From IMG/VR virus record IMGVR_UViG_3300028583_002208: a DNA stretch of 64,000 bases; one strand, given 5' to 3'. Shown in pieces: positions 20,303-62,298 of this stretch. The notes under the pieces are model-generated. The model worked only from the letters and a program-made list of their open reading frames with translations, was not told the DNA's origin and did no database searches. Source of the DNA: a virus. Taxonomy: Duplodnaviria > Heunggongvirae > Uroviricota > Caudoviricetes. The position numbers and the translations under genes are program-made. Position 1 is the stretch's first letter. Every line of letters starts with the position of its first letter.

Positions 20303-21312
20303 TTACATGCGGCAACTTTCACAGTCGTCTTCTTCATCTTCTAAAATAGAAGTTGCTGCAACCGTGGCCTTAGTCTCATCTTCTTTGATACCACCTTTAC
20401 TATTCTGATAGTATAAACTTTTAAGCCCCATTTTAGTAGCGTAGAAGTAATCTTTCATCATTACAGTAAGAGGTACTTTTTCACCTTCATACTTACTGTA
20501 GTTTGTGTAAAGGTCACAACTAATACCTTGTCCATGAAACTTTTGGAAGATAGCATAACAATCTATAATATCCTTAGTAGGTACATTATAAGCAAGTTCA
20601 TAACTATTCTTAACTTCTTCCTTCTCAATATCAGGTGCTGCAAAAGTATTCACTGTACTACCAGAACGCTTAACAGTGTAAAATTCACGTATAGGGTATA
20701 AGCTGTTGGTAGTCTCGCTTGCTTGAGAGCTACTTTCAGCAGGAGGAGTTGCCTCTAGTACCGAGTTACGTATACCACCTTGCCTTATGATTCCCTTACG
20801 TAAACTTTCCCAATCAAATTTCAAACCTTGGCTATGTACATCATCTACGTTTTTATTGTACGTGTCAATAGGTAGCCAACCTTCAGGATACTTAGTCCTA
20901 TCTATTAAAGAACAGTTACCCTTTTCTTTTGCTAAACGTAAACTTGCACTGTGTAAGTAGAAGCTGTGCATTTCAGCCAAAGAGTGCATGTAATTCTTAC
21001 CCTCTAAGCTACTATAACTCAAACCTCTTACTGCCATATCATGTGCTAGATTGGTAATACCTATACCTACACTACGTCTACCTTTAGCAGTGTTCTCCAC
21101 TTGAGGGAAAGGATACTCCATCAAATCGATAACATTATCAACTGCTAGAAGAGAATAATAAGCTACATCTTCATATTCTTCTTCTGAAATTCTTCCTGCA
21201 ACTAAACAACTTAGGAAACATAAAGCAATTTCACCTGCCTCAACTCCTTTATTCTTATCATACATATCTACAACGTTTAAATAACCTTTAGTAGGTAAAA
21301 ATATTTCTTGAC
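20303..21312 (-). CDS. nrdA: Class Ia RNR large subunit NrdA, exon 2 (C-terminal half)
   Basis: Upstream of the annotated ATG the frame stays open and reads 'QEIFLPTKGYLNVVDMYDKNKGVEAGEIALCFLS...', aligning with E. coli NrdA 'LEIALPTKPLNDVNDENGEIALCTLS'. It ends with the KSLYYQN and C-terminal CxxC tail. Confidence 0.85.
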
Positions 21313-21566
21313 TATAAGATCCCCTATTTTAATAAGGGTATGGATCATATCATCATCCGTTCTGGATGTCGGGCGCTAATGTGGTTATTAAGTTCTCAAA
21401 CCCCACTGATCTCTGGACGTTCTCTATCCTTAGAGCTTCGCTGCTGATTGCCATCTACTAACTAAAACACACTCGCTTCTCAGCGATAATGCAAAGCCTA
21501 GTTAAGGTTTCCAGTCAATTCACCCAATTATTCAATACGTGTCCCCACGTAAGGCTGCGTCATTTC
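21313..21566 (-). mobile_element. Group I-type self-splicing intron (ORF-less, ~254 nt) in nrdA
   Basis: The exon-1 frame hits TGA 3 nt past the conserved 'SSNL'. Joining ...aatctgt | gtcaagaa... restores 'SSNLCQEIFLPTK' (the NLC-EI radical-site motif). P1 can form between exon 'cugu' and intron 'gcag' with a U-G pair at the junction. R-like 'cagagaucag' and S-like 'gauaugaucc' elements are present. Boundaries are good to +/-1 nt. Confidence 0.7.
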
Positions 21567-22833
21567 ACAGATTGCTACTATAGATTGTATCTTTAAAAGG
21601 AGTATGCAAATTCATTTCATCTAACCAAGTGTGGTATTTACGGCCTGTATCACCACGTTGAGTTAAGAATAGTTTTAATACTTCAAAAGAGTTAACAAAC
21701 CTCTTCTTTCCTTCACTCTTTTCATAAGATTGATAAGCTTTCTTAAACTCGTCATAGCCTTTAAAATGTGCTTCATATAATTCAGGAGAATCATAATAAG
21801 ATACCAACATCCAAGGTTCTTTTCTAGAAGCTTTTTCAGCTAATAGTTTTGTTGCTCCCATCGAATAATCAAGTCCACGTATACGCTTATCTTCTATCGT
21901 GGTAGGATGCTTCAATCGTAACAAGGTTTCTACTTCTGGGTCAAGTACTGTGTAATGTACTGTCGCACCACCACCTCTAACTTCCTGCTTAGTAGACTTA
22001 ACCGCCCCTTGTAAATAACGGTAGTAAGGTATCTTTCCTGTATGTTTATCGGGCTGAGATCTTATAGGGTCTTTAACAGAACGAGTAGTTAAAGTACAAC
22101 CGATACCAGAGGATGCATTAGTAAACTTATAAGCAGCATGTACTAAATTCTCAATAGAGTCTGCAGTATCTTCTGACTTAATTACACAACAGCTAGCAAA
22201 ACCTTTAAAAGAAGTTCTCAAACCTGCTAAGAAAGGTGTTGGCATATTGATCTTCAAGTCGCTTAAATATGTGTATAGCTTCTCAACATCTTCTAATCTA
22301 CGCTCATCAGGTTGTGTTTCCATCACCTTCATTGCAATGCCCATGAAAGCATATTGAGGTGTTTCACAAACTACACCATTTAGCTTCTTCGCATACTTAG
22401 TGCTTATTTGTTTTACTGTAGATAACTTATAATTCAAATCTTTGTCATTATCTAAAACACTATCAAGATAATCTAAGTCAGAGTCATCATAATCCATGTA
22501 CTCCCATACACCAGCAGATGTCATTTTATAATAGAAGTCTGGTAAAGATGGCCTCTCTTCGAAACCCCCGTGTACAGTTTTATACAAAGAACCTAAATAT
22601 AACCTAGCTGCCATATCTAAATGTTCAGGAGTTTTCTTATCAGAGCAAGCGTCAATTAATGCTTGTTGCAACTCTTGTGTTGAACACTTATCTTCTACTT
22701 TACGTAATGCATCAAAAACTAACCCTGACCAACAAATACCTATTGTTGAACCCCACTCTGCCATACGGTTCAATTTGTCAGGAGAAAACTCTACAACATC
22801 ACCATTACTTTTAGTAACATAGTTTATACTCAA
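21567..22833 (-). CDS. nrdA: Class Ia RNR large subunit NrdA, exon 1 (ATP-cone plus N-terminal catalytic half)
   Basis: 'VTKSNGDVVEFSPDKLNR' is an ATP-cone. '...RKYHTWLDEMNLHTPFKDTIYSSNL' aligns to E. coli '...RIYIQNVDHCNTHSPFDPAIAPVRQSNLC'. Confidence 0.85.
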
Positions 22834-28789: not shown

Positions 28790-30343
28790 TTATTCTCCTT
28801 CGATGTGATCAATAATTTCGCCAGTGGATTTATTCTTTTGTACAAGTTTTGTCTTACCTTCTGAAGAAAGTTTTCTTTGCTCAAGTAATATCTCTTTAAT
28901 GGAATCCATTGCGTCCACTAGGTCTTGCTTCTTACCAGATTTATATGCTTTCAGGTTATTATTCAAAATATGATCAATAACACTATCATAAGATTCGATT
29001 ATAACTTCTGCATTATCCTTATCGAACACTTCATAAGGTGCTGTAAAAAGGTTATTGTTTTCAATTGCAGAAGTATCTACTTTGAAAGCTTTACACAATT
29101 TATAAAAATCCATCTTATCGTCATACGATCTTGTCATGTATGCTACAAGAAAGTAAGTATTCATATAAGTCATGGTATCAACGTCATGAAAATCTCCGTG
29201 ACAGTCTGTGTATTCTACACCATTAGAAAGTAATTTTGCAAAGGTATCTATAGTAGCTTGTAAAACTTCTTTAGCCGTAGTACAAGGTTGTAATACTCTA
29301 TAGGCTGCTTGAACACCAAAGTTCATATTGTAACCGCAATCTACTAGATGCCCTAATGCGTTGTAATTATCGGCTTGATCTGAATTCAGAGCAGCTTGTG
29401 CCATTAAGAATTTAAAACCATACCCCTTAAGTTCAGGACTCCCTGATGTGGATACTAATTCTAAATTACCTGCACACTTATCTGTGGCAGGAATAAGCAT
29501 CAGTTGTGGATATTTAAAAGTGCCTTTCAAAGGATTATTCTCACCTGTGTGCAAATCAGCGTTTATAACACCTCCTGCACTATTTAGGGAATCCTTATCT
29601 GACGAAACTAAGACGTAAGATAACCATCCGTTTTTAATATAATTCTTGTAACCCTCAGCTTTATAAAATTCACAAAGGTCATCACACTCTATATTCTCCC
29701 CGTCATAACGACTTACAGGTAACTCTGCTCCTAATTCTTCAACACACCAATCTCTCAACTTCTGTAGTAGTAACGGTCTTAAGGAGTCTACACGATTTCC
29801 TTTGTAAGCTCTCACTGTTGGTAGCTTGTCTCTAAATGTTTTACCTTTACCAAACAGAAGTTTGGTTTTATCTAATCCATACTGAAGCTTAATTTGCTTA
29901 AGCTTTTTGTATACAAGTATCTTAGCCTGTTCCATAGCTTTGTCTTCATCGTACTTTAGTTTTTGTTTTTCCGTGATAACAAAATCTTCGACCTTTAATG
30001 GTTCTAATCCTTCTACTTCCCTCTCTGTGTTAAGTAAGCCCAACCAAGAAGATTCTGAAATCTTTTTACCCTTTCCTTTGAACTCTGTCTTATTCTTCAA
30101 GTCGGCAGTGATGTCTCCACACACTACAGTTATAAACTTATTTTCCATTTGTTGTGCAATTCTATACGCTGGAGTATCAAAATCGAACACTGCAATGGTT
30201 TCGTCTGTTATTACACCTTCTTTACGGGGGTCTTTCACTTGAATCTCAGGAAACAATTTATTATCCGAATCATCTCTTACAAAAGGTTTTTCCTCACCTT
30301 CCACCTTAGGAACATTCCCCATCACAAAACTAAATTCACTCAC
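28790..30343 (-). CDS. FEN / 5'-3' exonuclease (RNase H-like PIN domain), large form
   Basis: 'TIAVFDFDTPAYRIA' (N-terminal Asp cluster) and 'YVLVSSDKDSLNS' match T5-exo/Pol I 5'-nuclease motifs. Confidence 0.55.
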   Translation of the reverse strand: MSEFSFVMGNVPKVEGEEKPFVRDDSDNKLFPEIQVKDPRKEGVITDETIAVFDFDTPAYRIAQQMENKFITVVCGDITADLKNKTEFKGKGKKISESSWLGLLNTEREVEGLEPLKVEDFVITEKQKLKYDEDKAMEQAKILVYKKLKQIKLQYGLDKTKLLFGKGKTFRDKLPTVRAYKGNRVDSLRPLLLQKLRDWCVEELGAELPVSRYDGENIECDDLCEFYKAEGYKNYIKNGWLSYVLVSSDKDSLNSAGGVINADLHTGENNPLKGTFKYPQLMLIPATDKCAGNLELVSTSGSPELKGYGFKFLMAQAALNSDQADNYNALGHLVDCGYNMNFGVQAAYRVLQPCTTAKEVLQATIDTFAKLLSNGVEYTDCHGDFHDVDTMTYMNTYFLVAYMTRSYDDKMDFYKLCKAFKVDTSAIENNNLFTAPYEVFDKDNAEVIIESYDSVIDHILNNNLKAYKSGKKQDLVDAMDSIKEILLEQRKLSSEGKTKLVQKNKSTGEIIDHIEGE

Positions 30344-32782: not shown

Positions 32783-33667
32783 TTATTTTACAATAACTTC
32801 TTCCAAACGATTAATCACATCAAACACCACTGGCAATTGTAATTGATACTGTGTCAAAAAGTTAACACTGTCCGAAGTATCCTCATCTGGTTTAAATTTT
32901 AAATCTTCTAAAAACTTAACCGACTCAATTGATAAAGTGTTCGTCACATCACACTCAAATATTCCGTCGAATTCGATTTGTACGCTTTTGACCACATTAC
33001 CTAAATCAGTCACCAATGATAAAATCTCATCCACTGCTGGGTAAGTTTTAGAAACTTTAATTGTAGAAGAAGATGGTTTTTTATCAAGAACACTCTTCTT
33101 ACCTAGTGATACCTTTTCCACAAGAGTGAACGGGTCAGGAAGATTCTTACGTTCATCTAATAGGAAATCTGTTAGGATAGTTTCCGTTGCAACAGGTTCT
33201 GTTGAAAGTAATTCCAATTCAGAATAATCACCTTCGAAACAAGATAACAAATCTCCCATAATCATATCAGCAAAGTTACGTGCTTCTGCAATCACCACTT
33301 TGCCCGTAGAGTTGTCAACAGCCACGATAGCAGCCTTTGAAGTATAACCAGTGTATTGCATTAACTCAAGGCGTTTCTCCTCTTGTACCGCGTTGTAGGT
33401 ATCTTCATCTTGTGGTAAAGCTTTGTCTTCTATATGGGCAGCAGTTTGTTCTGCTAAAATAGTTTTATCTGGCTCTTTTCGAGAAGTGAATCGAATTTTG
33501 GCAACTTGGTAACCATTTACGTCTTGGATGTACGTTTCATCGAAAAGTGGATCAAATGAAACTAAAGTGGTTTGTTCTTTTGTAAGGGTGTTGACAGTTT
33601 TAGCAAGGATTGCTTCTTCGTTTAATTGGATATCACCTTTGAAATTGTACACTGCGAATTTTTTCAT
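32783..33667 (-). CDS. Possible RdgC-like recombination-associated protein
   Basis: 294 aa, an RdgC-like size. The N-terminus 'MKKFAVYNFKGDI' parallels RdgC 'MLWFKNLMVYRL'. Acidic. No decisive motif. Confidence 0.3.
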   Translation of the reverse strand: MKKFAVYNFKGDIQLNEEAILAKTVNTLTKEQTTLVSFDPLFDETYIQDVNGYQVAKIRFTSRKEPDKTILAEQTAAHIEDKALPQDEDTYNAVQEEKRLELMQYTGYTSKAAIVAVDNSTGKVVIAEARNFADMIMGDLLSCFEGDYSELELLSTEPVATETILTDFLLDERKNLPDPFTLVEKVSLGKKSVLDKKPSSSTIKVSKTYPAVDEILSLVTDLGNVVKSVQIEFDGIFECDVTNTLSIESVKFLEDLKFKPDEDTSDSVNFLTQYQLQLPVVFDVINRLEEVIVK

Positions 33668-34900: not shown

Positions 34901-36502
34901 TTAGAGCTGTGCCTTCCACTTACCATTTTTAATAGTGATAATACACCGTTTACCATTACTGTAGGTTATAATGTGACTATTACTCCATGAAGATCCTCCT
35001 TTATTGTACCCCATATCGAGACAACCACTTACCCCCGCAGTGTAAACCCCGTCTTTTATCCCTGCTGAATGAGTATGACCTGTGTTGAACCTTCCGCCTT
35101 GCATTTGGAAAGCTCTTACACCGCCTCTGGCACCATTATTTCCAACGTGCCCATGTTGACCACACTCTATATCTCCACATATTTTGAAGCTTTCATCCTC
35201 CGACAAGAATATCACGTCATCTAAGTTATCATTGACTAAATTACAGGCAGTTTTGAATGTGTGCAATTTTCTACCCTCATCCATAGCATAATAATTTTGA
35301 AGCTGCAGTTCTAAGAAGAAGATAGCATTAACAGGGTCATTTTTATAATCCTGTTCCCTGAGGTATTTTTCTAAAGCTAAGTCATGGTTCGACTCAACTA
35401 CAACCACCTTTTCACAAACTTTATTCATTTCTTCTATAAGGTTGGCAGTTAAGGTTACTTCATCTTTAACACTCTCTGTACCTTTCTTGTACATCTGAAA
35501 CTTGAAGTAAGGGTCTTTGATATTGTGGTGATTGCGTGATTGCTGGTCGAAAACATCATGTAAGAACACGTAGTTAGGTAAAAGTTCACTTGCCATACTA
35601 TCAGTTCTCTTACCCCAACTAATATCTGCTACAACAGGGTCTAACTTAGCGGTATGAATATCACCCCAATTTATAGATTCCACACAGTAAGGTTCTTGTT
35701 CTTTACCCTCGGGAGTATAGTACCAACCTAAATCGAAGAATTTACCTGTCTCTGATTCTGCTACCAGTTGTCTAACAAACCAATCGCCATCACTGTCAAT
35801 CTCTACAACCAAAGCGCTAAACACATGATTATGAGATGCTTTCTGTCCTGCTTTCATTTTAACGTAGTTACGTTGGGTTACCGTGCCTGTTGTATACATC
35901 ATCTTTGCTGGATCATTCTTAGGTGTTGGCAGACTCTCCAATTGCAACTTGGCGTGAGGTATGATAGCGGAATCTTTATTGGTGTAGTTTTGTAACCCTG
36001 AAATAGGATTAACTGCAGTAGGTAATATATTCAACTCCCCGCAATAAATCAATTGATCCGCAAGTACACAACTTTCATCTAAAATATAATCACGTATTTT
36101 AGGATCGAACCACACTTCCTCAGATTTACCATTCTGGAAACCGTTCTTATTATAATGATATGTTCCTACAATTAATTCTGCGTCTTCTTCTTCACAGTAG
36201 TGCAATAAGCTTCTCAAGAATTTATCATGTACATAAGTATTATTTTGTGCAGAAGTTATTACAAACTTGTTACCGCTAAGGATTTTCCTCTTTGTAGTAG
36301 GACAAACCACTTCACCACTAGCAACAGGTTTATCCTCATAAGACTCCCAAAAATCAGTATAAGTTTCTTTACGTAAAAAATCACCTATCGTAGATTTACC
36401 TACACCATACATTTCTGCAATATACCTACTGCTCCGTTTCTCTTGATAAGTTAGTCGTAAAATCTCCACCAACTCATCATTTGAAAAAATAGTTTTACTC
36501 AA
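34901..36502 (-). CDS. N-terminal HTH domain fused to a calcineurin-like metallophosphoesterase
   Basis: 'SSRYIAEMYGVGKSTIGDFLRK' is a sigma-r4/transposase-like HTH. Later come 'INWGDIHTAKLDP', 'VVVVESNHD' and 'GHTHSAG', the GDxH / GNHD / GHxH metallophosphoesterase motifs. Confidence 0.55.
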   Translation of the reverse strand: MSKTIFSNDELVEILRLTYQEKRSSRYIAEMYGVGKSTIGDFLRKETYTDFWESYEDKPVASGEVVCPTTKRKILSGNKFVITSAQNNTYVHDKFLRSLLHYCEEEDAELIVGTYHYNKNGFQNGKSEEVWFDPKIRDYILDESCVLADQLIYCGELNILPTAVNPISGLQNYTNKDSAIIPHAKLQLESLPTPKNDPAKMMYTTGTVTQRNYVKMKAGQKASHNHVFSALVVEIDSDGDWFVRQLVAESETGKFFDLGWYYTPEGKEQEPYCVESINWGDIHTAKLDPVVADISWGKRTDSMASELLPNYVFLHDVFDQQSRNHHNIKDPYFKFQMYKKGTESVKDEVTLTANLIEEMNKVCEKVVVVESNHDLALEKYLREQDYKNDPVNAIFFLELQLQNYYAMDEGRKLHTFKTACNLVNDNLDDVIFLSEDESFKICGDIECGQHGHVGNNGARGGVRAFQMQGGRFNTGHTHSAGIKDGVYTAGVSGCLDMGYNKGGSSWSNSHIITYSNGKRCIITIKNGKWKAQL

Positions 36503-38302: not shown

Positions 38303-38581
38303 TTATTTTGCATTAATTTTCTCCTTCTTAAAAATTTTACTCACCCACATCGCAATAAAGCAACCTAACGCTCCACCAGTCCCTGTGCTTAACACTAACC
38401 ACACTTTATCCAAATCTGATGTAGCTATCATATGAATAACATAAACCTCGCACAAAGCTATACATAGGCTTGTAGGAAGTATCAACCACCATTGACTATT
38501 TGTTATATTGATCACCTGCATGGAACGGAAACTCACATAACCTGCAGATGCCAACATTTGAATAAAGAATAATGTTATCAC
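38303..38581 (-). CDS. Small membrane protein
   Basis: 92 aa with three hydrophobic segments. Confidence 0.35.
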   Translation of the reverse strand: MITLFFIQMLASAGYVSFRSMQVINITNSQWWLILPTSLCIALCEVYVIHMIATSDLDKVWLVLSTGTGGALGCFIAMWVSKIFKKEKINAK

Positions 38582-39795
38582 TTTTTATTCCTGTTGAAAA
38601 CTTCCACTTGCTTATCGGTGTAATATTTACACTTAGTGGCATCATATTCAAAATCATTACCTGCCTTACCTTGACCTTTTGTTAATTCGAACATACGCTT
38701 CTGTGCTTTGAACACATTAGTAAAATTGAAATCATTTTCAAACATAATCTCAGCTAAATCCTCTAACATGATAAAACCCTTTTCAGAATGTTTATCCAGT
38801 AACCACTTAGGTAATTCTATCTTATAATAGTCACTCTTACCACCATCGGATTTAATTGGTGCTGTGGAAGGTTTTTGCTCGACCTTATTCTTTACCCTTT
38901 CCGAACTATCAAGTTGTTTCAGGTAAGAGTTGATCCTCCTAGCCTCATCTTCAACTTTGTTTGTCGTGCATTTATACGACCCTTCTCCTAATAAGTGGTC
39001 AGGAACACCAAATGTTGCAAGTATTTTATCTTCACTACTTAACTCTTTTAACAAGGCAGCTTTCTTCTCCTCAAGGGTTCCTTTTAAGGTTATACGTTTT
39101 GTATCATCTAAAGAATTAACCATATTACTAAAATCTCTGTACGGTTGGTCAGAAACACTCGGGGAATCAAGTACACTCTCTCCCGTCAAAGTAAATTCAC
39201 CTAAATCTACCACCTTCTTTACTCCTGCCACTCCATACTCGGCAGGAGTAATCACTTGTTCCCAAAGGCCAACTTTTTGATAATTAGCTTCCACCCAAGA
39301 TTTCTCACCTCGGAAAAAGATCAATTCATTTTTACTATTATAATCTTCCCAATAGTAATATTTTCCACAATCAGATTCCGACATGAATAAAATACCATTT
39401 CCACTGTAGAATTGTTCACATTGAGAAGGAGCGCCTTTTGAACAACGATAATACTTTTCAATAGAAATGTTTTTAACAGGGTTGTATGGGATGCTGAAAT
39501 TTTCTTTCTCAGCTACTTTAAAACTTGCCAAAATACCTTCTCTACTCTTATTCAAGTGTTCCACCAACTTCTCCCATGTAAAGACCCCTATATTAATCCA
39601 ATCATTGTCGGTAATGTAATATCCTGTTTCCAATTCTACAAATTCTCGGAAATCAATGGCATGTGTACCAAGGTTAATTTCTGTGTGAGTGTAACAATTA
39701 TCGAAAACGTAAGTGAAATCCACGCCGCAATAGTCACTAAACCTTTTCATAATTTCATCTACTTTATCACCGTTAATTTTTGTATAAACCATCAA
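38578..39795 (-). CDS. Hypothetical protein translationally coupled to the nucleotidyltransferase
   Basis: 405 aa. Its start overlaps the nucleotidyltransferase stop by 4 nt. No motif recognised. Confidence 0.45.
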   Translation of the reverse strand: MMVYTKINGDKVDEIMKRFSDYCGVDFTYVFDNCYTHTEINLGTHAIDFREFVELETGYYITDNDWINIGVFTWEKLVEHLNKSREGILASFKVAEKENFSIPYNPVKNISIEKYYRCSKGAPSQCEQFYSGNGILFMSESDCGKYYYWEDYNSKNELIFFRGEKSWVEANYQKVGLWEQVITPAEYGVAGVKKVVDLGEFTLTGESVLDSPSVSDQPYRDFSNMVNSLDDTKRITLKGTLEEKKAALLKELSSEDKILATFGVPDHLLGEGSYKCTTNKVEDEARRINSYLKQLDSSERVKNKVEQKPSTAPIKSDGGKSDYYKIELPKWLLDKHSEKGFIMLEDLAEIMFENDFNFTNVFKAQKRMFELTKGQGKAGNDFEYDATKCKYYTDKQVEVFNRNKK

Positions 39796-40997
39796 ATATC
39801 CTCCAAATCAATCTCACCAACAACTGTTAATTTTGTACAAGTGGAATACTTACCACCACCATCAGATTCAAGTTTAGCGCGAGTTTTCCCTGATGTCAAC
39901 TTAATAATTGCGGAATTGTCATTGCTTCCTAATCCATAATGATTCTTTGCCTTCTCAGCACTCTTATAAAGGAATACACCTCGACCAGAATTGTCAGGAC
40001 TTTCTCCTACAATATATTTAAAATCTCTGGCATAAATACTTGTGTAAACACCATATTCCGAAGTTTTTAACACTTTCTTATAATAGAAATACTCTTTATT
40101 AGGATCATTTGGTTCATGTTGTTCTTCGATAAACTCTAATAAATCTTCTAAATCAGTAGCTGGAATTTTAGCAGTTGTACCTTCTAAATTACATTCCAAC
40201 TCTTCTAATTGTTCAAACACTTCCTCTATTGTAAAATCTTTATCTTCATCGAAGAGGTCATCCATGTTATAACCGTACATACCTCCGATAGCATTTTTAA
40301 CATCGTCCCAAGAAGAAAGATTCAAACTTGCAACAGATAAACATAGTTTAATAAATTCCTTTCGATTAATTGAATAACCTCGTTGCTGGTATTTAGCTAA
40401 GCGAAGTTGACTAATAATTGGGAAAGATGTCCCCTCGTTAACACGTAGCTTTCGTGAAGCATTATCTGTTAGGAAATCATCATCTAGGACGAAACACCCC
40501 TGTGCAAAATCGTACACACCCATGTTAATAGTGAAATCAAAACTTTTAAAAATATCTTCCACTGTTGGATAGAATCCACAATGAATAGCTTGCACCTGCA
40601 TACCACTTCCGTCAAGGAACATAACACTTTTATCAGTGTGACCCACATAACGTAAGGCAAAGGTATCTAATTCTACAGGAGAGGGTGTTACATCTTGGTC
40701 AAAGTTAATAGCACTTGGAGTACAAGGTACACAAGGTTTTTCACCAAAAGTTACTTTTATAAATTTAATCAAACTTTCCTTATCACGGAAATAAATATCC
40801 AAATCGTTCACTTCTTTATTAGTGAATACACTTGTCACAGCTCCACCTGCTACAAAGCATCCTAACTCTTTGAACAATTCTTCCAACCCTTCTGTCTCAC
40901 TAACTAAACTTAAAAGTTGTTTCTTTTGTCGTGAATGCTTGCCCTTGTTTGATCGGGTGATCACTTCTTGGATTTCATTTAACACTTGTTCCCTCAT
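39792..40997 (-). CDS. Pol-beta-superfamily nucleotidyltransferase with CCA-adding-enzyme/poly(A)-polymerase head-domain motifs
   Basis: 'GCFVAGGAVTSVFTNKEVNDLDIYF' matches GGAVRD...DxD of class II CCA-adding enzymes, and 'FDFTINMGVYDF' matches their RDFTINA motif. No HD domain. Confidence 0.55.
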   Translation of the reverse strand: MREQVLNEIQEVITRSNKGKHSRQKKQLLSLVSETEGLEELFKELGCFVAGGAVTSVFTNKEVNDLDIYFRDKESLIKFIKVTFGEKPCVPCTPSAINFDQDVTPSPVELDTFALRYVGHTDKSVMFLDGSGMQVQAIHCGFYPTVEDIFKSFDFTINMGVYDFAQGCFVLDDDFLTDNASRKLRVNEGTSFPIISQLRLAKYQQRGYSINRKEFIKLCLSVASLNLSSWDDVKNAIGGMYGYNMDDLFDEDKDFTIEEVFEQLEELECNLEGTTAKIPATDLEDLLEFIEEQHEPNDPNKEYFYYKKVLKTSEYGVYTSIYARDFKYIVGESPDNSGRGVFLYKSAEKAKNHYGLGSNDNSAIIKLTSGKTRAKLESDGGGKYSTCTKLTVVGEIDLEDI

Positions 40998-41093
40998 AAA
41001 ATCTCCTCTTTTAATATTTATTTCGGTAAAGTTTAATTGACTTATGAAAGGTATTCTACGTTAAATTTTACATAAGTCAATTAGTTTTTACTT

Positions 41094-42200
41094 TTATTCT
41101 AAAGGTGCTCCACTGTCATCACATTTACGGAAGTATAAACCTCTTGCAAATGTAGGGATACCATCTTCGGTTAAATCTTGATATTTGAAATTAACCCATT
41201 CACCTAAACGTTTACTAAGTTTCTCATAAGTGTTTTCCTCATGGCTGCCGTTCATTGCTAATTCAAAAACAACTTTACTGTTTGTCTCAGGATTTGTCCA
41301 CTCTACTGTAAATAAACCTTGTCCATTCTTATCCTCTTTACAAGATAACACCTTACATTCAGAATCTTCCATCAACTTATATTTAAGTAGGTCATTTGAA
41401 CGTTTATTCTGGAACTCATAAAACCCTTGCGGGTTTCTTAGCATGATCCCCTCAAATCCTTCTAACAGATACTGGTAAAGCTTCTCCTCAAGTCCTGACT
41501 TTGTTATAAGCTCTTGCTCTACAATGTTTACATGTAAAAGTTCTGCCGCTGTTTCTTTGAAGCTTTCCATAGTACAATTGCGATTTACAAAAGGTTCATA
41601 CAACACGGGGACATCAAATACCTCGTATGTAACTTTCTTTGTTAAATCATTAGGTTTCTTAACACAGGATTGTATCTTTTGGAGCTTGTACCCAGATACG
41701 TAAGCTTCACCATCTAAAGATTCAACACCTGTAACCTCGTGTAGACGCTTTAATTGAGGAATTAAGTGTTCTGGTACAGGGTAGGTTTTACCACCACGAG
41801 AATGCCACTCAGGTTCTCCATTTACGAATACAGTTTTACACCTCAGTCCATCAATTTTTCTAGAAGCATAGAAGGTGTCTTCTAAAAAGTGAGGTTTCTT
41901 AGTGTAATCCTGTGCAAGCATAACACCTTCTGTTAAAAGTAATCTGGACTCTTCAATAGATTCACGGTAATATTTATCGTATTGTTTATTCCACTTAGAT
42001 TGTGCTTCCAGTTCCGCTTGTTGAGAAGGTGTTGTCTCATTAGAACGTCCTACATTTTTAGGTTTGCAAACTGTTTTCTTAATTTGCTTCTTACCTGCAA
42101 GCTTGCCCCATTCCACAATAACAGTGGCATCTTCTGTCCAAACAGACCATGATTTTACTTCTAAAGTTTTGTCAACTCCGTACAATGTTTTCTTATCCAT
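41094..42200 (-). CDS. ATP-dependent DNA ligase (T7-like)
   Basis: Motif I 'ASRKIDGLRCKTVFVNGEPEWHSRGGKTYPVPEHL' parallels T7 ligase 'KYDGVR...SRVSKTIPALEHL'. 'EGIMLR' is motif IV-like. Confidence 0.8.
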   Translation of the reverse strand: MDKKTLYGVDKTLEVKSWSVWTEDATVIVEWGKLAGKKQIKKTVCKPKNVGRSNETTPSQQAELEAQSKWNKQYDKYYRESIEESRLLLTEGVMLAQDYTKKPHFLEDTFYASRKIDGLRCKTVFVNGEPEWHSRGGKTYPVPEHLIPQLKRLHEVTGVESLDGEAYVSGYKLQKIQSCVKKPNDLTKKVTYEVFDVPVLYEPFVNRNCTMESFKETAAELLHVNIVEQELITKSGLEEKLYQYLLEGFEGIMLRNPQGFYEFQNKRSNDLLKYKLMEDSECKVLSCKEDKNGQGLFTVEWTNPETNSKVVFELAMNGSHEENTYEKLSKRLGEWVNFKYQDLTEDGIPTFARGLYFRKCDDSGAPLE

Positions 42201-57250: not shown

Positions 57251-57327
57251 GGGACATTAGCTCAATTGGACAGAGCAAGGTGTTTCTACCGCCTAGGTTG
57301 CAGATTCGAGTTCTGCATGTCCCACCA
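57251..57327 (+). tRNA. tRNA-Arg (anticodon UCU), CCA encoded
   Basis: Manual cloverleaf: acceptor gggacat/atgtccc, D-arm gctc-aattggaca-gagc, anticodon arm aggtg-ttTCTac-cgcct, T-arm gcaga-ttcgagt-tctgc, discriminator A, then CCA. Confidence 0.8.
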
Positions 57328-57331
57328 CATT

Positions 57332-57406
57332 GCGAGATTAGTTTAATTGGTAAAATAGTAGCCTTCCAAGCTTCAGTCATGGGATCGTAACCCATATCTC
57401 GCTCCA
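57332..57406 (+). tRNA. tRNA-Gly (anticodon UCC), CCA encoded; slightly non-canonical
   Basis: Acceptor gcgagat/atctcgc (7 bp). D-arm gttt/aaat. Anticodon arm gtagc-ctTCCaa-gcttc with one U-U mismatch. T-arm atggg-atcgtaa-cccat. Discriminator U, then CCA. Confidence 0.6.
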
Positions 57407-59451: not shown

Positions 59452-60261
59452 ATGATCTGGAATAATATCACCTTTCCTGTCAAAGAAGAGTGGAAAGATA
59501 TCGAAGGTTACGAAGGTATTTATAAAGTTAGTAATTATGGCAGGGTGAAGAGTCTGTCCAGAGATATTCACTACCACAGGAACGGAAAAATGACTTCTAT
59601 CTTTAAGAAAGGAAGGTTACTTAAACCCAAGACAGACAAGGATGGTTATAAAGAGTTATGTATGACTTCCTCTGAAGGTATTAGGAAATACAAGAGAGTG
59701 CACCGTATCGTGGCAGAAGCTTTCTTAGAAGAAACTCACATAGATAACGCTGTGATAGACCACATAGATAATACCAAAGACAATAATATTTGGTACAATC
59801 TGCAATGGATGACTTCTACTCAGAATACTATAAAGTATTACGCAGAAGATTACAGTAAAAGTAGAACTTTAAGTTCCTTAACAAAAGAGGAGTTTGCTAG
59901 GATAGGTGAACTTTACAATAAAGGTTTACTTTACCCTGAGATTATAGATGAAATGGGTTTGACGGTAGAAAGTCCCTCCACTTTATGGGAAGTTCTATGT
60001 GGGAGAAGGTTGTCTAGCGTATCTGGTTTTAAAGAGGGAGATTTTAAAACAAGACCTCACCCTACTACGAAATTAACTGAAGATGATGTAGTACAAATAA
60101 TTAAAGAAAGAATTATAGATAAACAAAAGTTAAAAGTGTTGTCAGAGAAATGGGGTGTAGCTGAGTCCATGATAAGTAGATTTACTAAAGGTACTCGACA
60201 ACCTTCCGCTTATATTAAATTCAAAGAAAGGTATAATTATGACAAAGAAAAAGAAGAGTGA
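59452..60261 (+). CDS. HNH homing endonuclease with NUMOD4-type N-terminal module; free-standing, abutting terL exon 1
   Basis: 'IEGYEGIYKVSNYGRVKS' is NUMOD4. 'HRIVAEAF...IDHIDNTKDNNIWYNLQWMTSTQN' is the HNH core. The C-terminal region is HTH-like. Its 3' end overlaps the terL exon-1 start in another frame. Confidence 0.75.
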   Translation: MIWNNITFPVKEEWKDIEGYEGIYKVSNYGRVKSLSRDIHYHRNGKMTSIFKKGRLLKPKTDKDGYKELCMTSSEGIRKYKRVHRIVAEAFLEETHIDNAVIDHIDNTKDNNIWYNLQWMTSTQNTIKYYAEDYSKSRTLSSLTKEEFARIGELYNKGLLYPEIIDEMGLTVESPSTLWEVLCGRRLSSVSGFKEGDFKTRPHPTTKLTEDDVVQIIKERIIDKQKLKVLSEKWGVAESMISRFTKGTRQPSAYIKFKERYNYDKEKEE

Positions 60262-60346
60262 ACCACTCTTCAAACCCGCCAGTGAGAAGCAAGCTCTTAT
60301 TCTTAAAAGGGCTTCTGACACACAGGTGACTATTATTGGTGGAGCT
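60239..60346 (+). CDS. terL: Large terminase subunit TerL, exon 1 (N-terminus up to the first half of Walker A)
   Basis: ATG at 60239 with a GAAAGG RBS. Translation 'MTKKKKSEPLFKPASEKQALILKRASDTQVTIIGGA' then hits TAA. 'Q..L......Q..IIGGA' is the typical TerL region before the P-loop, and it is missing from the ORF track. Confidence 0.7.
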
Positions 60347-60592
60347 TAAAAATCCAGTGGTTCCACATTAAATAACCCTGCTAATTCGATGAAGGCTAAG
60401 TGTACTACATAAGCTAATATCGAGCCGAATGATTAAATTCATGGGTGTAGAGATCAATCGTGATGAGTGTAACGATGTAGGGGCCAAGTGGCTTCCAAAC
60501 GTAGGGCTATGTTATAACATAGAAGATATGATCCGACAACACAGGAAACTGTGGAAAGAGAGTAACGCCTCTAAAACTGATCCTGAAAAATG
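60347..60592 (+). mobile_element. Group I-type intron A in terL (ORF-less, ~246 nt), splitting the Walker A motif
   Basis: Exon 1 ends ...GGA, exon 2 begins (A)GSGKS. P1 forms between exon 'ggagcu' and intron 'gguucc' with a terminal U-G, and the intron ends in G (60592). R-like 'gagaucaa' and S-like 'aagauaugauccg' elements are present. Confidence 0.65.
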
Positions 60593-60928
60593 GCTGGTTC
60601 AGGAAAAAGTTATCTATTGCAAATGATCCCTTTAATGTTAATAGATGATCCCAATTCGGAAATGGTAATGTTCCGTAGAACTAATCCCCAGATAAAAGGT
60701 GCGGGTGGTATATTTAGCACAGGTTGCGGAATATACAATCAGCTCCCTCCTAATATAAGACCAAAGATTAAAACAGGTGACCTAGAAGTTATATTCCCTA
60801 CCAAAGACGAGAAAGGTAGGCGTAGTTATAATGGTGCCAAGATAAAATATCAACAAGCAGAAAATGTAGAACAAAGTAAACTAAATGCCCAAGGTTTGCA
60901 ATGGACTTTTGTTGGTATAGATGAGGGT
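60593..60928 (+). CDS. terL: TerL exon 2 (ATPase: Walker A second half to Walker B)
   Basis: '(A)GSGKSYLLQMIPLM...' completes the P-loop, and '...LQWTFVGIDEG' is Walker B. The frame then hits TAA at 60929. Confidence 0.8.
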
Positions 60929-61182
60929 TAATTGTAGCCCCTTAATGTAGGAATACATTTAGAAAATCCCGTGAATTCAGGGGAAGCCTCTAGTAGGTAA
61001 TCCTGAGCGAAGCTCGAAAGAGAACGTGCAACGACTATCCTGAAAAGGAGTACACAACAAGCTAATGGTTGTGGAAGCGCGGGACACCTAGAACAGGTGA
61101 TGATATAGTCTGAACTTCTATGGTGACATAGAGCAGCCATAATAGGCGGAAGATGACTTGCAAACATCTTTGAACACAATTG
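60929..61182 (+). mobile_element. Group I intron B in terL (ORF-less, ~254 nt), inserted just after Walker B
   Basis: Canonical group IA-type core: R element 'caacgacuauccug' and S element 'gaugauauagucug' (P7 GACUA/UAGUC). A U-G P1 forms between exon 'gggu' and intron 'gccc'. It ends in G (61182). Joining gives '...VGIDEG|TQFEWSQIEYF...'. Confidence 0.75.
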
Positions 61183-62298
61183 ACACAATTCGAATGGAGT
61201 CAGATAGAATATTTCATGTCTCGACTCAGGTCACAATCAAAACATTTCTCCCGTATGGTTATATCTTGTAACCCGTCACCCTCTCATGAGATTAAGAAGA
61301 TGATCTCATTCTACTTGACAGATGACGGATATCCTGACCCTAAAAAGGACGGTTTAGTTAGGTATTTCATACAAAGAGACGGTGAGTACATATGGGGAGA
61401 AACAAGGGAAGAATTAGGAACAAGGTTTGATATTCCTGAAAAAGATTGGGAAAACTTAATTCTATCTTTCAGCTTCGTGAGCGCAAATATTTATGATAAT
61501 CCTCCGATGATTGAGAGCAACCCAGCTTACCTCGGCTTCTTAGAAGGTTTGAATGAAATTGACAAAGCTCAACTATTACATGGTTGCTGGGCAGAATTTG
61601 CATTCGGAAGTAAATACTTTAAACGTGATTGGATAGATCACGTAGATAAAGTACCTACAGATGGTCTCACTGTTAGGGCATACGATTTCGGAGCATCTGA
61701 AAGAACCATGTCAAACAAGAACCCCGATCCAACAGTAAGTATAAAAATGCATAAAAGTAAAGATGGCTATTATACTTTAATGGGTGATTACCACGAAGAC
61801 TTCTATGACAAAGTGGATGATATTCAAGGGGCAATGTATCTCAGTTCTGGGGAAAGGGATAGAGTAATGTTAAAACAGGCTGCATTTGACGGTTCAGAAG
61901 TTTACCTTGTTGGTCCGCAAGATCCTGCTGCGGCTGGAAAAGCCCTTTGGAATCAACAAGCTAAGTACTTTGCAGAAGAAGGTTATATTTATAAAAAAGA
62001 CCCCATGCCTATAACAAAGAATAAACTTACCAAGTTCTTACCTTTTGCAACAAGTGCAGAGAATGGTTTGATACGTATAGTTAAGTCCACTTTTTCAGAG
62101 AACACTTATAATCATATAATGAAACAGTTGGAAAACTTTGATGGTGAAAGATCAACCAAAACCAAAAAGGATGACTTTGCAGATGCTATAGCTTCGGCTT
62201 ACAACTTCCTATCCAAAGAAAGAGTAATCCGCGCCTACAGCCTCCCAGACACCACTTCTCCAACAGCTTACACCTCTTACCGCAAGTCTATCCGATGA
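61183..62298 (+). CDS. terL: TerL exon 3 (ATPase C-motif plus RNase H-like nuclease domain)
   Basis: 'SRMVISCNPSPSHE' is the TerL coupling motif (ISTP-like). 'RAYDFGAS' and 'KDDFADAIASAYNF' carry the nuclease acidic residues. Confidence 0.8.
   Translation, partial: TQFEWSQIEYFMSRLRSQSKHFSRMVISCNPSPSHEIKKMISFYLTDDGYPDPKKDGLVRYFIQRDGEYIWGETREELGTRFDIPEKDWENLILSFSFVSANIYDNPPMIESNPAYLGFLEGLNEIDKAQLLHGCWAEFAFGSKYFKRDWIDHVDKVPTDGLTVRAYDFGASERTMSNKNPDPTVSIKMHKSKDGYYTLMGDYHEDFYDKVDDIQGAMYLSSGERDRVMLKQAAFDGSEVYLVGPQDPAAAGKALWNQQAKYFAEEGYIYKKDPMPITKNKLTKFLPFATSAENGLIRIVKSTFSENTYNHIMKQLENFDGERSTKTKKDDFADAIASAYNFLSKERVIRAYSLPDTTSPTAYTSYRKSIR

Follow-up and report, generated by a model that had tools for sequence, protein, structure and literature searches.

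What does a phage gain from a gene whose product resembles the enzymes that add CCA to tRNA? The question is raised by positions 38578-40997 of a 64,000-nucleotide (nt) stretch of IMG/VR virus record IMGVR_UViG_3300028583_002208 (hereafter the window, meaning the whole stretch), where a gene for a 401-amino-acid (aa) nucleotidyltransferase (NTase) at 39792..40997 overlaps a second gene at 38578..39792. Both genes, and all features described within them, lie on the minus strand; the NTase open reading frame (ORF) starts at an ATG, and its coordinates, which include the stop codon, agree with those given in a preliminary description of this DNA. That description took the protein for a CCA-adding-like enzyme that might repair tRNA. 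We find instead that it belongs to the Gad2 family (PF26128), an assignment well supported at the level of sequence, and that it is probably a catalytically intact member whose nucleotidyl transfer would disarm a host defence, Gabija being the likeliest. The protein itself is new and previously unannotated; the Gad2 family and its NTase fold were already known, being Pfam-curated and published.

Gad2 was described as a protein of ~400 aa encoded in the anti-Gabija locus of SPbetaL6 and SPbetaL7, and SPbetaL7 becomes sensitive to Gabija once gad2 is deleted (Yirmiya et al., bioRxiv 10.1101/2023.05.01.538930). The same study reported 170 homologues, nearly all in phages or prophages, and an AlphaFold-predicted NTase domain, a hint that Gad2, in contrast to Gad1, works as an enzyme. 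Expressed by itself, SPbetaL7 Gad2 is toxic, and a non-toxic homologue from a Brevibacillus prophage abolishes Gabija defence on co-expression (bioRxiv 10.1101/2023.05.01.538930).

Several searches connect the window protein to this family. A metagenome protein identical to it (P0001) and all 84 of its homologues (84/84) carry a PF26128 (Gad2) label; these labels are precomputed, and the Pfam library used in our local scans did not include the PF26128 model. A tblastn search of GenBank phages matched the coding sequence (CDS) annotated 'Gad2' in Bacillus phage SPbetaL7 (OQ921347, 109563-110765; E=6e-42), which we identify with the gene whose deletion (bases 109,505-110,753) gave Gabija sensitivity (bioRxiv 10.1101/2023.05.01.538930). 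BLASTP aligned the two proteins along most of the window protein, over 366 positions at 32% identity (E=4e-52), reaching aa 355 and so extending into the C-terminal domain described below. It is this combination of the family label with tblastn and BLASTP matches to an experimentally validated gene that makes membership well supported. The protein also falls in phrog_18122, a group of unknown function (7e-142), and its head domain weakly matches phrog_1614, 'nucleotidyltransferase' (9e-10). Scans against Pfam (lacking PF26128), NCBIfam and PADLOC returned nothing significant, and sequence and profile searches of the PDB gave no matches for either the NTase or its downstream partner. With that Pfam library, hmmscan matched none of 70 family members (0/70) to a Gad2 model, and by hmmscan alone the protein would pass as unclassified.

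The residues expected of an active NTase are conserved. Positions 49-70 read VAGGAVTSVFTNKEVNDLDIYF, within which AGGAVTS…NDLD forms motif A (aa 50-67, AGGAVTSVFTNKEVNDLD; 40797..40850), comprising a GG turn and two metal-binding aspartates, D65 and D67. A motif B-like element, FDFTIN, follows at aa 153-158 (40524..40541). In an alignment of 70 family sequences, G51, G52, D65, D67 and D154 are invariant and F153 is nearly so. The GG pair and both aspartates D65 and D67 align with those of E. coli Cca, AGGAVTS…DLD standing here for the class II motif A, GGxVRD…DxD, with its two catalytic aspartates. The preliminary description had picked out GGAV…DxD and (R)DFTIN motifs; GGAV…DLD and DFTIN are indeed there, but the residue before D154 is phenylalanine rather than arginine.

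An AlphaFold2 model built from the 70-sequence alignment (mean predicted local distance difference test (pLDDT) score 87.3; predicted template modelling score 0.83) opens with a helical segment at the N-terminus, continues through an alpha/beta head (~aa 46-170) and a helical neck (~aa 175-266), and closes with a C-terminal domain of eight beta strands (~aa 300-395; 39813..40100). In structure it comes closest to enzymes that add CCA, A or CC and to poly(A) polymerase (PAP). The head and neck fold of class II CCA-adding enzymes and PAPs is present in the model, in which the Pol-beta-type head and helical neck (~aa 46-266; 40200..40862), which form the family's conserved catalytic core, are most like those enzymes. 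The beta-rich C-terminal domain, delimited from the secondary structure of the model, is partly common to SPbetaL7 Gad2 and is missing in many shorter homologues, many of which cover just 50-66% of the 401-aa query. Minimal NTases, toxin-antitoxin NTases (MNT, MenT) and CD-NTases were considered and rejected, as they are not the closest structural or sequence neighbours.

How might such an enzyme act? We propose that its synthesis would be early, its gene belonging to the leftward block that also holds the DNA ligase gene and the genes for recombination and nucleotide metabolism, and that it would use a nucleoside or deoxynucleoside triphosphate to nucleotidylate a target, disabling a host defence, most likely Gabija. 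Gabija has been proposed to act at the ends of injected linear phage DNA where RecBCD cannot load, preventing circularisation (PMC12407980). Because Gabija is placed at linear DNA ends and the closest structural relatives of the NTase extend nucleic-acid 3' ends, we favour template-independent addition of nucleotides to the 3'-OH of a nucleic acid as the likely chemistry, over a protein that would bind the defence complex stoichiometrically. The gene content of the phage also speaks for the proposal. Phage exonuclease/annealase or Gam-type end-binding proteins are reported to license Gabija attack (PMC12407980), and the window encodes an exonuclease (phrog_107; 28790-30343, minus strand), an RdgC-like recombination-associated protein (PF04381 / phrog_724; 32783-33667, minus strand) and a DNA ligase, which are functions of the kind reported to license that attack on other phages.

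Several points weigh against this proposal. The PF26128 label is a precomputed one. Activity against Gabija has been shown for two Firmicute-phage homologues only, with one of which the window protein, from a Pseudoalteromonas-type phage, shares 32% identity. The presence of Gabija in the host is presumed, and a literature check for it in Pseudoalteromonas brought no information. The substrate and the 3'-end chemistry are our inference, because the mechanism of Gad2 was still unelucidated according to a February 2026 review (PMC12904381), and our literature search found no later mechanistic paper. Finally, the family is very large: a profile search of 1.84 billion cluster representatives (50% clustering) recovered 721 at E<=1e-30 and 5826 at E<=1e-3, and so many proteins may not share one function.

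Family size and diversity also lend weight to the alternative that survives best, in which the window protein is a Gad2-family paralogue with another target, either countering a different defence system or serving as a general RNA/DNA 3'-tailing or host-takeover enzyme, and not specific to Gabija. We regard this as a real possibility, though clearly the less probable reading. The toxicity of SPbetaL7 Gad2 expressed alone is matched by a Pseudomonas phage NTase, whose homologues in some other phages are annotated as Gad2-family and which is cytotoxic at high induction; both toxicities suggest a target that is present without Gabija. Genomic contexts vary by lineage as well, from tRNA arrays to RNA ligase and polynucleotide kinase to DNA ligase. 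In four Vequintavirinae phages (VIK251, PVP-SE1, Av-05 and 18-1-2), the homologue sits directly 3' of an array of 12-23 tRNA genes on the same strand, two small genes before the terminase (loci L014, 4001-5458; L018, 4983-6399; L016, 3935-5290; L019, 4935-6272). In PVP-SE1 the homologue is divided between two CDSs, numbered genes 80 and 79. In the jumbo Pectobacterium phage CBB (L017, 4062-10324), homologue gp079 lies among an HD-domain protein (gp077), a T4-type RNA ligase 1 (gp083) and a polynucleotide kinase (gp087), with a cytidyltransferase (gp073) nearby, and on a 364-kilobase (kb) contig (L010) the homologue is found near an RlaP NTase. No tRNAs stand beside the Gad2 homologue at 12 other loci examined, and we rejected tRNA adjacency as a family-wide signal, since it belongs to one lineage. 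Against a different target stand the strong conservation of the catalytic core between SPbetaL7 Gad2 and the window protein, and the fact that anti-Gabija activity is the sole experimental function of the family. We continue to favour a Gabija-directed NTase.

The neighbourhood associations are not statistically strong, because each represents one lineage; together they hint at nucleic-acid end chemistry. A more tentative idea is 'nucleic-acid end camouflage': Gad2-family enzymes, the window protein among them, could be template-independent 3'-end transferases that tail or cap the 3'-OH ends of the injected linear genome, or those of some other nucleic acid, tRNA for example, leaving the end-sensing Gabija nuclease-helicase unable to engage. 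If so, the DNA ligase in the clade of the window, the RNA ligase, polynucleotide kinase and HD protein of CBB, and the tRNA arrays of the Vequintavirinae would be traces of that chemistry, and end camouflage would constitute a mode of immune evasion. We consider this extension doubtful as it stands.

The reading that first suggested itself, a tRNA nucleotidyltransferase that adds or restores 3' nucleotides (CCA) on tRNAs damaged by host nucleases, or that tags RNA, is unlikely. It draws on the structural matches to CCA-, A- and CC-adding enzymes and PAP, on the homologues that follow tRNA arrays in the Vequintavirinae, and on those of CBB and L010, with their RNA-repair and RlaP neighbours. 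P2 Old, which is homologous to the Gabija nuclease GajA, also cleaves tRNA (PMC12445682). Yet Old cuts at the anticodon stem, damage that a 3'-end transferase could not mend, and GajA cut DNA in that study (PMC12445682). A Pfam scan of the 401-aa protein found no match at E<=1 to PF01743 (PolyA_pol), PolyA_pol_RNAbd (PF12627) or HD models, whereas the positive control, E. coli Cca, matched PF01743 at 3.7e-19, and PF12627 and HD strongly too, in the same scan. Across the family, PF01743 reached one of 70 homologues, below threshold (E=0.0057), and SPbetaL7 Gad2 likewise gave no PF01743 match. The preliminary description had named PF01743 as the check on its proposal, and had noted the lack of an HD domain; the second observation stands, and the first check speaks against a CCA-adding enzyme.

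The motifs and the modelled fold point the same way. In both hhalign and MAFFT alignments, KRRDLTIN of E. coli Cca pairs with KSFDFTIN, so that the aspartate is kept and both arginines of the class II 'RRD' motif are gone, replaced by Ser-Phe. GEDPLR of Cca, which contains the CTP/ATP-selecting motif D (EDxxR), pairs with SFPIIS; the hhalign comparison with Cca is weak (probability 0.6%, E=0.096), and the motif D register rests mainly on its recovery by both methods and on the flanking LR…(K/R)(Y/F) match. The helical tRNA-binding body and tail, whose modelling had been suggested earlier as a second check, are absent from the AlphaFold2 model, with the beta-rich C-terminal domain in their place. 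Because RRD, EDxxR and the body/tail are all replaced, the substrate would not be selected in the manner of CCA enzymes. The only tRNA genes in the window, Arg-tct and Gly-tcc (57251-57406, plus strand), both already encode CCA, and calling them nearby, as had been done, was generous given that they lie 16 kb away on the opposite strand. Adjacency to tRNA genes elsewhere is, as noted, confined to a single lineage. CCA repair of tRNA is unlikely on these grounds, and with it the enzyme class that the preliminary description had proposed.

The overlapping gene raises the further question of whether the NTase works with a partner. Both ORFs are real genes rather than chance, given 84 homologues of the NTase, 56 of the partner, and a strong Shine-Dalgarno sequence, AGGAG (41003..41007), 6 nt 5' of the NTase ATG at 40997. 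Their junction reads GAGGATATTTGATGG (…GGAGGATATTTGATGG…). The 405-aa partner with a 4-nt overlap reported earlier corresponds to a TTG start at 39795 against the TGA stop of the NTase gene. The next codon, ATG at 39792, is most likely the true start, giving 404 aa and a 1-nt overlap (TGATG): GGAGG sits 7 nt 5' of this ATG, a better spacing than for the TTG; it is the start called independently for phage J2-1 and for three metagenome contigs; and an identical partner homologue is 404 aa long. With either start the stop and start codons overlap and the two genes are translationally coupled, as had been described.

What the partner does is less legible. It matches only phrog_4521, of unknown function, has no Pfam, NCBIfam, PADLOC or PDB match, and yielded nothing interpretable in fold searches. 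Its structure model (overall pLDDT 63) contains two confident domains. The first is a Cys-containing middle beta domain (~aa 100-175; 39268..39495; pLDDT 76-95) built on the conserved block PYNPVKNIS…YYRC…CGKYYYWE; it reappears with a different C-terminus on a protein encoded after the ligase at locus L008. The second, a helical C-terminal domain (~aa 315-404; 38581..38850; pLDDT 89-96), is a mobile module carried by many different phage proteins: proteins whose N-termini are unrelated share the C-terminal ~90 aa at 62-83% identity, and in four of them the module is joined to acyl-carrier-protein domains. It also has a homologue in the N-terminus of gp41, which the N4-like phage St11Ph5 encodes in its replication module (hhalign probability 88.9%, E=2.4e-6). 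The module was located at 38581-38850 (minus strand) in the window, at 27302-27766 in L023 and at 2218-3294 in L012, and it makes up the C-terminal part of an Acinetobacter phage protein wrongly called 'DNA polymerase', a name that has no Pfam support. A suspected DUF3310-like identity for the domain was dropped, as there was no Pfam match in the domain itself, in St11Ph5 gp41 or in any of 52 homologues.

Pairing of the two genes is retained in the closest relatives, J2-1 and contigs whose NTase homologues are 88-90% identical (P0002, P0004 and P0008), and it breaks down beyond them. Around Gad2 homologues of 47-48% identity, the partner-type gene comes after the DNA ligase and not after Gad2 (Gad2 … ligase-partner in L008; Gad2-46aa-ligase-222aa-partner in L011). 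In Shewanella phage 1/40, Vibrio phage R16F and Aeromonas phage 2L372D, the partner module and the Gad2-like gene are tens of kilobases apart, and the SPbetaL7, Vibrio, Klebsiella and jumbo-phage loci have no partner-type neighbour. The partner also diverges fast, being 304 aa with an internal deletion in J2-1 and matching HM1 over aa 1-174 only, while the NTase remains ~90% identical. Since the partner varies among close relatives and separates from Gad2 elsewhere, the overlap is best read as ordinary tight phage gene packing; the coupling is probably incidental, and the functional link once proposed between the two proteins is not conserved in relatives. Judged by its sequence relationships, the downstream protein combines two mobile modules in a mosaic, and its gene is a separate accessory one rather than an obligate partner. 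A two-component system, with the 404-aa protein as, for example, a targeting or regulatory subunit, is very unlikely, the overlapping codons and the pairing in close relatives being outweighed by the loss of that pairing elsewhere, the occurrence of the two domains on separate proteins and the rapid divergence of the partner.

The wider window places this gene firmly in a phage. Terminase, tail, ribonucleotide reductase and ligase genes show that the NTase is phage-encoded, and the protein identical to it (P0001) occurs on contigs of 137-138 kb, which gives a phage of ~137 kb. Region 38578-40997 has ~90% nucleotide identity to Pseudoalteromonas phage J2-1 (Qingdaovirus) and 87% to HM1. An ATP-dependent DNA ligase gene (41094-42200, minus strand) adjoins the Gad2-family gene in the clade of the window, separated here by a 96-nt gap that holds a sigma-70-like promoter match, TTGACT-16-TAGAAT (41053..41080, minus strand); it is a consensus match only, and such matches in the region are no more numerous than the shuffled expectation.

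Other genes invite brief comment. An ORF at 34901..36502 (minus strand), previously called a metallophosphoesterase, does show GDIH, SNHD and GHTH motifs by eye, but it matches no Pfam model, those for phosphoesterases included, and instead matches phrog_1745, 'DNA transfer protein' (T5 A1-like; 3e-190); this T5 A1-like ORF is positioned mid-genome rather than in a first-step-transfer terminal region. A 92-aa ORF (38303-38581, minus strand) overlaps the partner stop by 4 nt and matches phrog_7045, 'holin' (1e-11), an odd placement inside an early/DNA-metabolism block. The large subunit of ribonucleotide reductase is encoded in two ORFs (20303-22833, minus strand): 21565..22833 (422 aa) covers phrog_84 positions 60-487 and 20303..21265 (320 aa) covers 501-795, and the intervening ~300 nt (21266-21564) may be an intron or mark a split gene. 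The terminase large-subunit ORF (61180..62298, plus strand) covers only phrog_979 positions 274-626 and has an HNH endonuclease ORF (59452..60261) just upstream; the terminase gene (59452-62298, plus strand) may be interrupted by a homing-endonuclease element, as is annotated in Escherichia phage 18-1-2.

These findings correct an annotation: what Pseudoalteromonas phages J2-1 and HM1, and several marine phages known from metagenomes, carry as a 'hypothetical protein' is a candidate anti-defence protein of the Gad2 family and not a tRNA CCA-adding enzyme. They extend the Gad2 family to marine gammaproteobacterial phages, which would imply Gabija-type pressure in those hosts. They also narrow the hypotheses for the substrate of Gad2, through the class II CCA/PAP head and neck fold, the replacement of ribose- and base-selecting motifs together with a different C-terminal domain, and the company that the gene keeps in several lineages, be it ligases, genes of RNA repair or tRNA arrays.

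Set against known systems, the window protein shares the modelled head and neck of class II tRNA nucleotidyltransferases and PAP I (E. coli Cca; the B. stearothermophilus CCA enzyme, 1miv; PAP, 3aql), and it differs from them in reading SFD for RRD and FPIIS for EDPLR and in having neither an HD domain nor a body/tail. The TENT5/FAM46 non-canonical poly(A) polymerases are more distant, being eukaryotic, 12% identical and without a sequence-level match. Phage proteins called 'nucleotidyltransferase' or 'tRNA nucleotidyltransferase', namely phrog_1614, Shewanella phage KASIA p052 and a Bacillus phage YungSlug protein, show weak but significant similarity in the head domain (9e-10 for phrog_1614, 2e-9 for KASIA); these names are annotation only, and KASIA p052 also lacks a PF01743 match. 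The founding member, SPbetaL7 gp159 Gad2 (WIT28108.1), differs in its setting, a temperate SPbeta-like Bacillus phage as against a virulent gammaproteobacterial (Pseudoalteromonas-type) phage of ~137 kb, and in its neighbourhood, the SPbeta anti-Gabija locus as against a DNA ligase gene. The two are nonetheless alike in being phage-encoded and ~400 aa long and in sharing the GG…DxD and FDFT(I/V) motifs of a predicted NTase domain.

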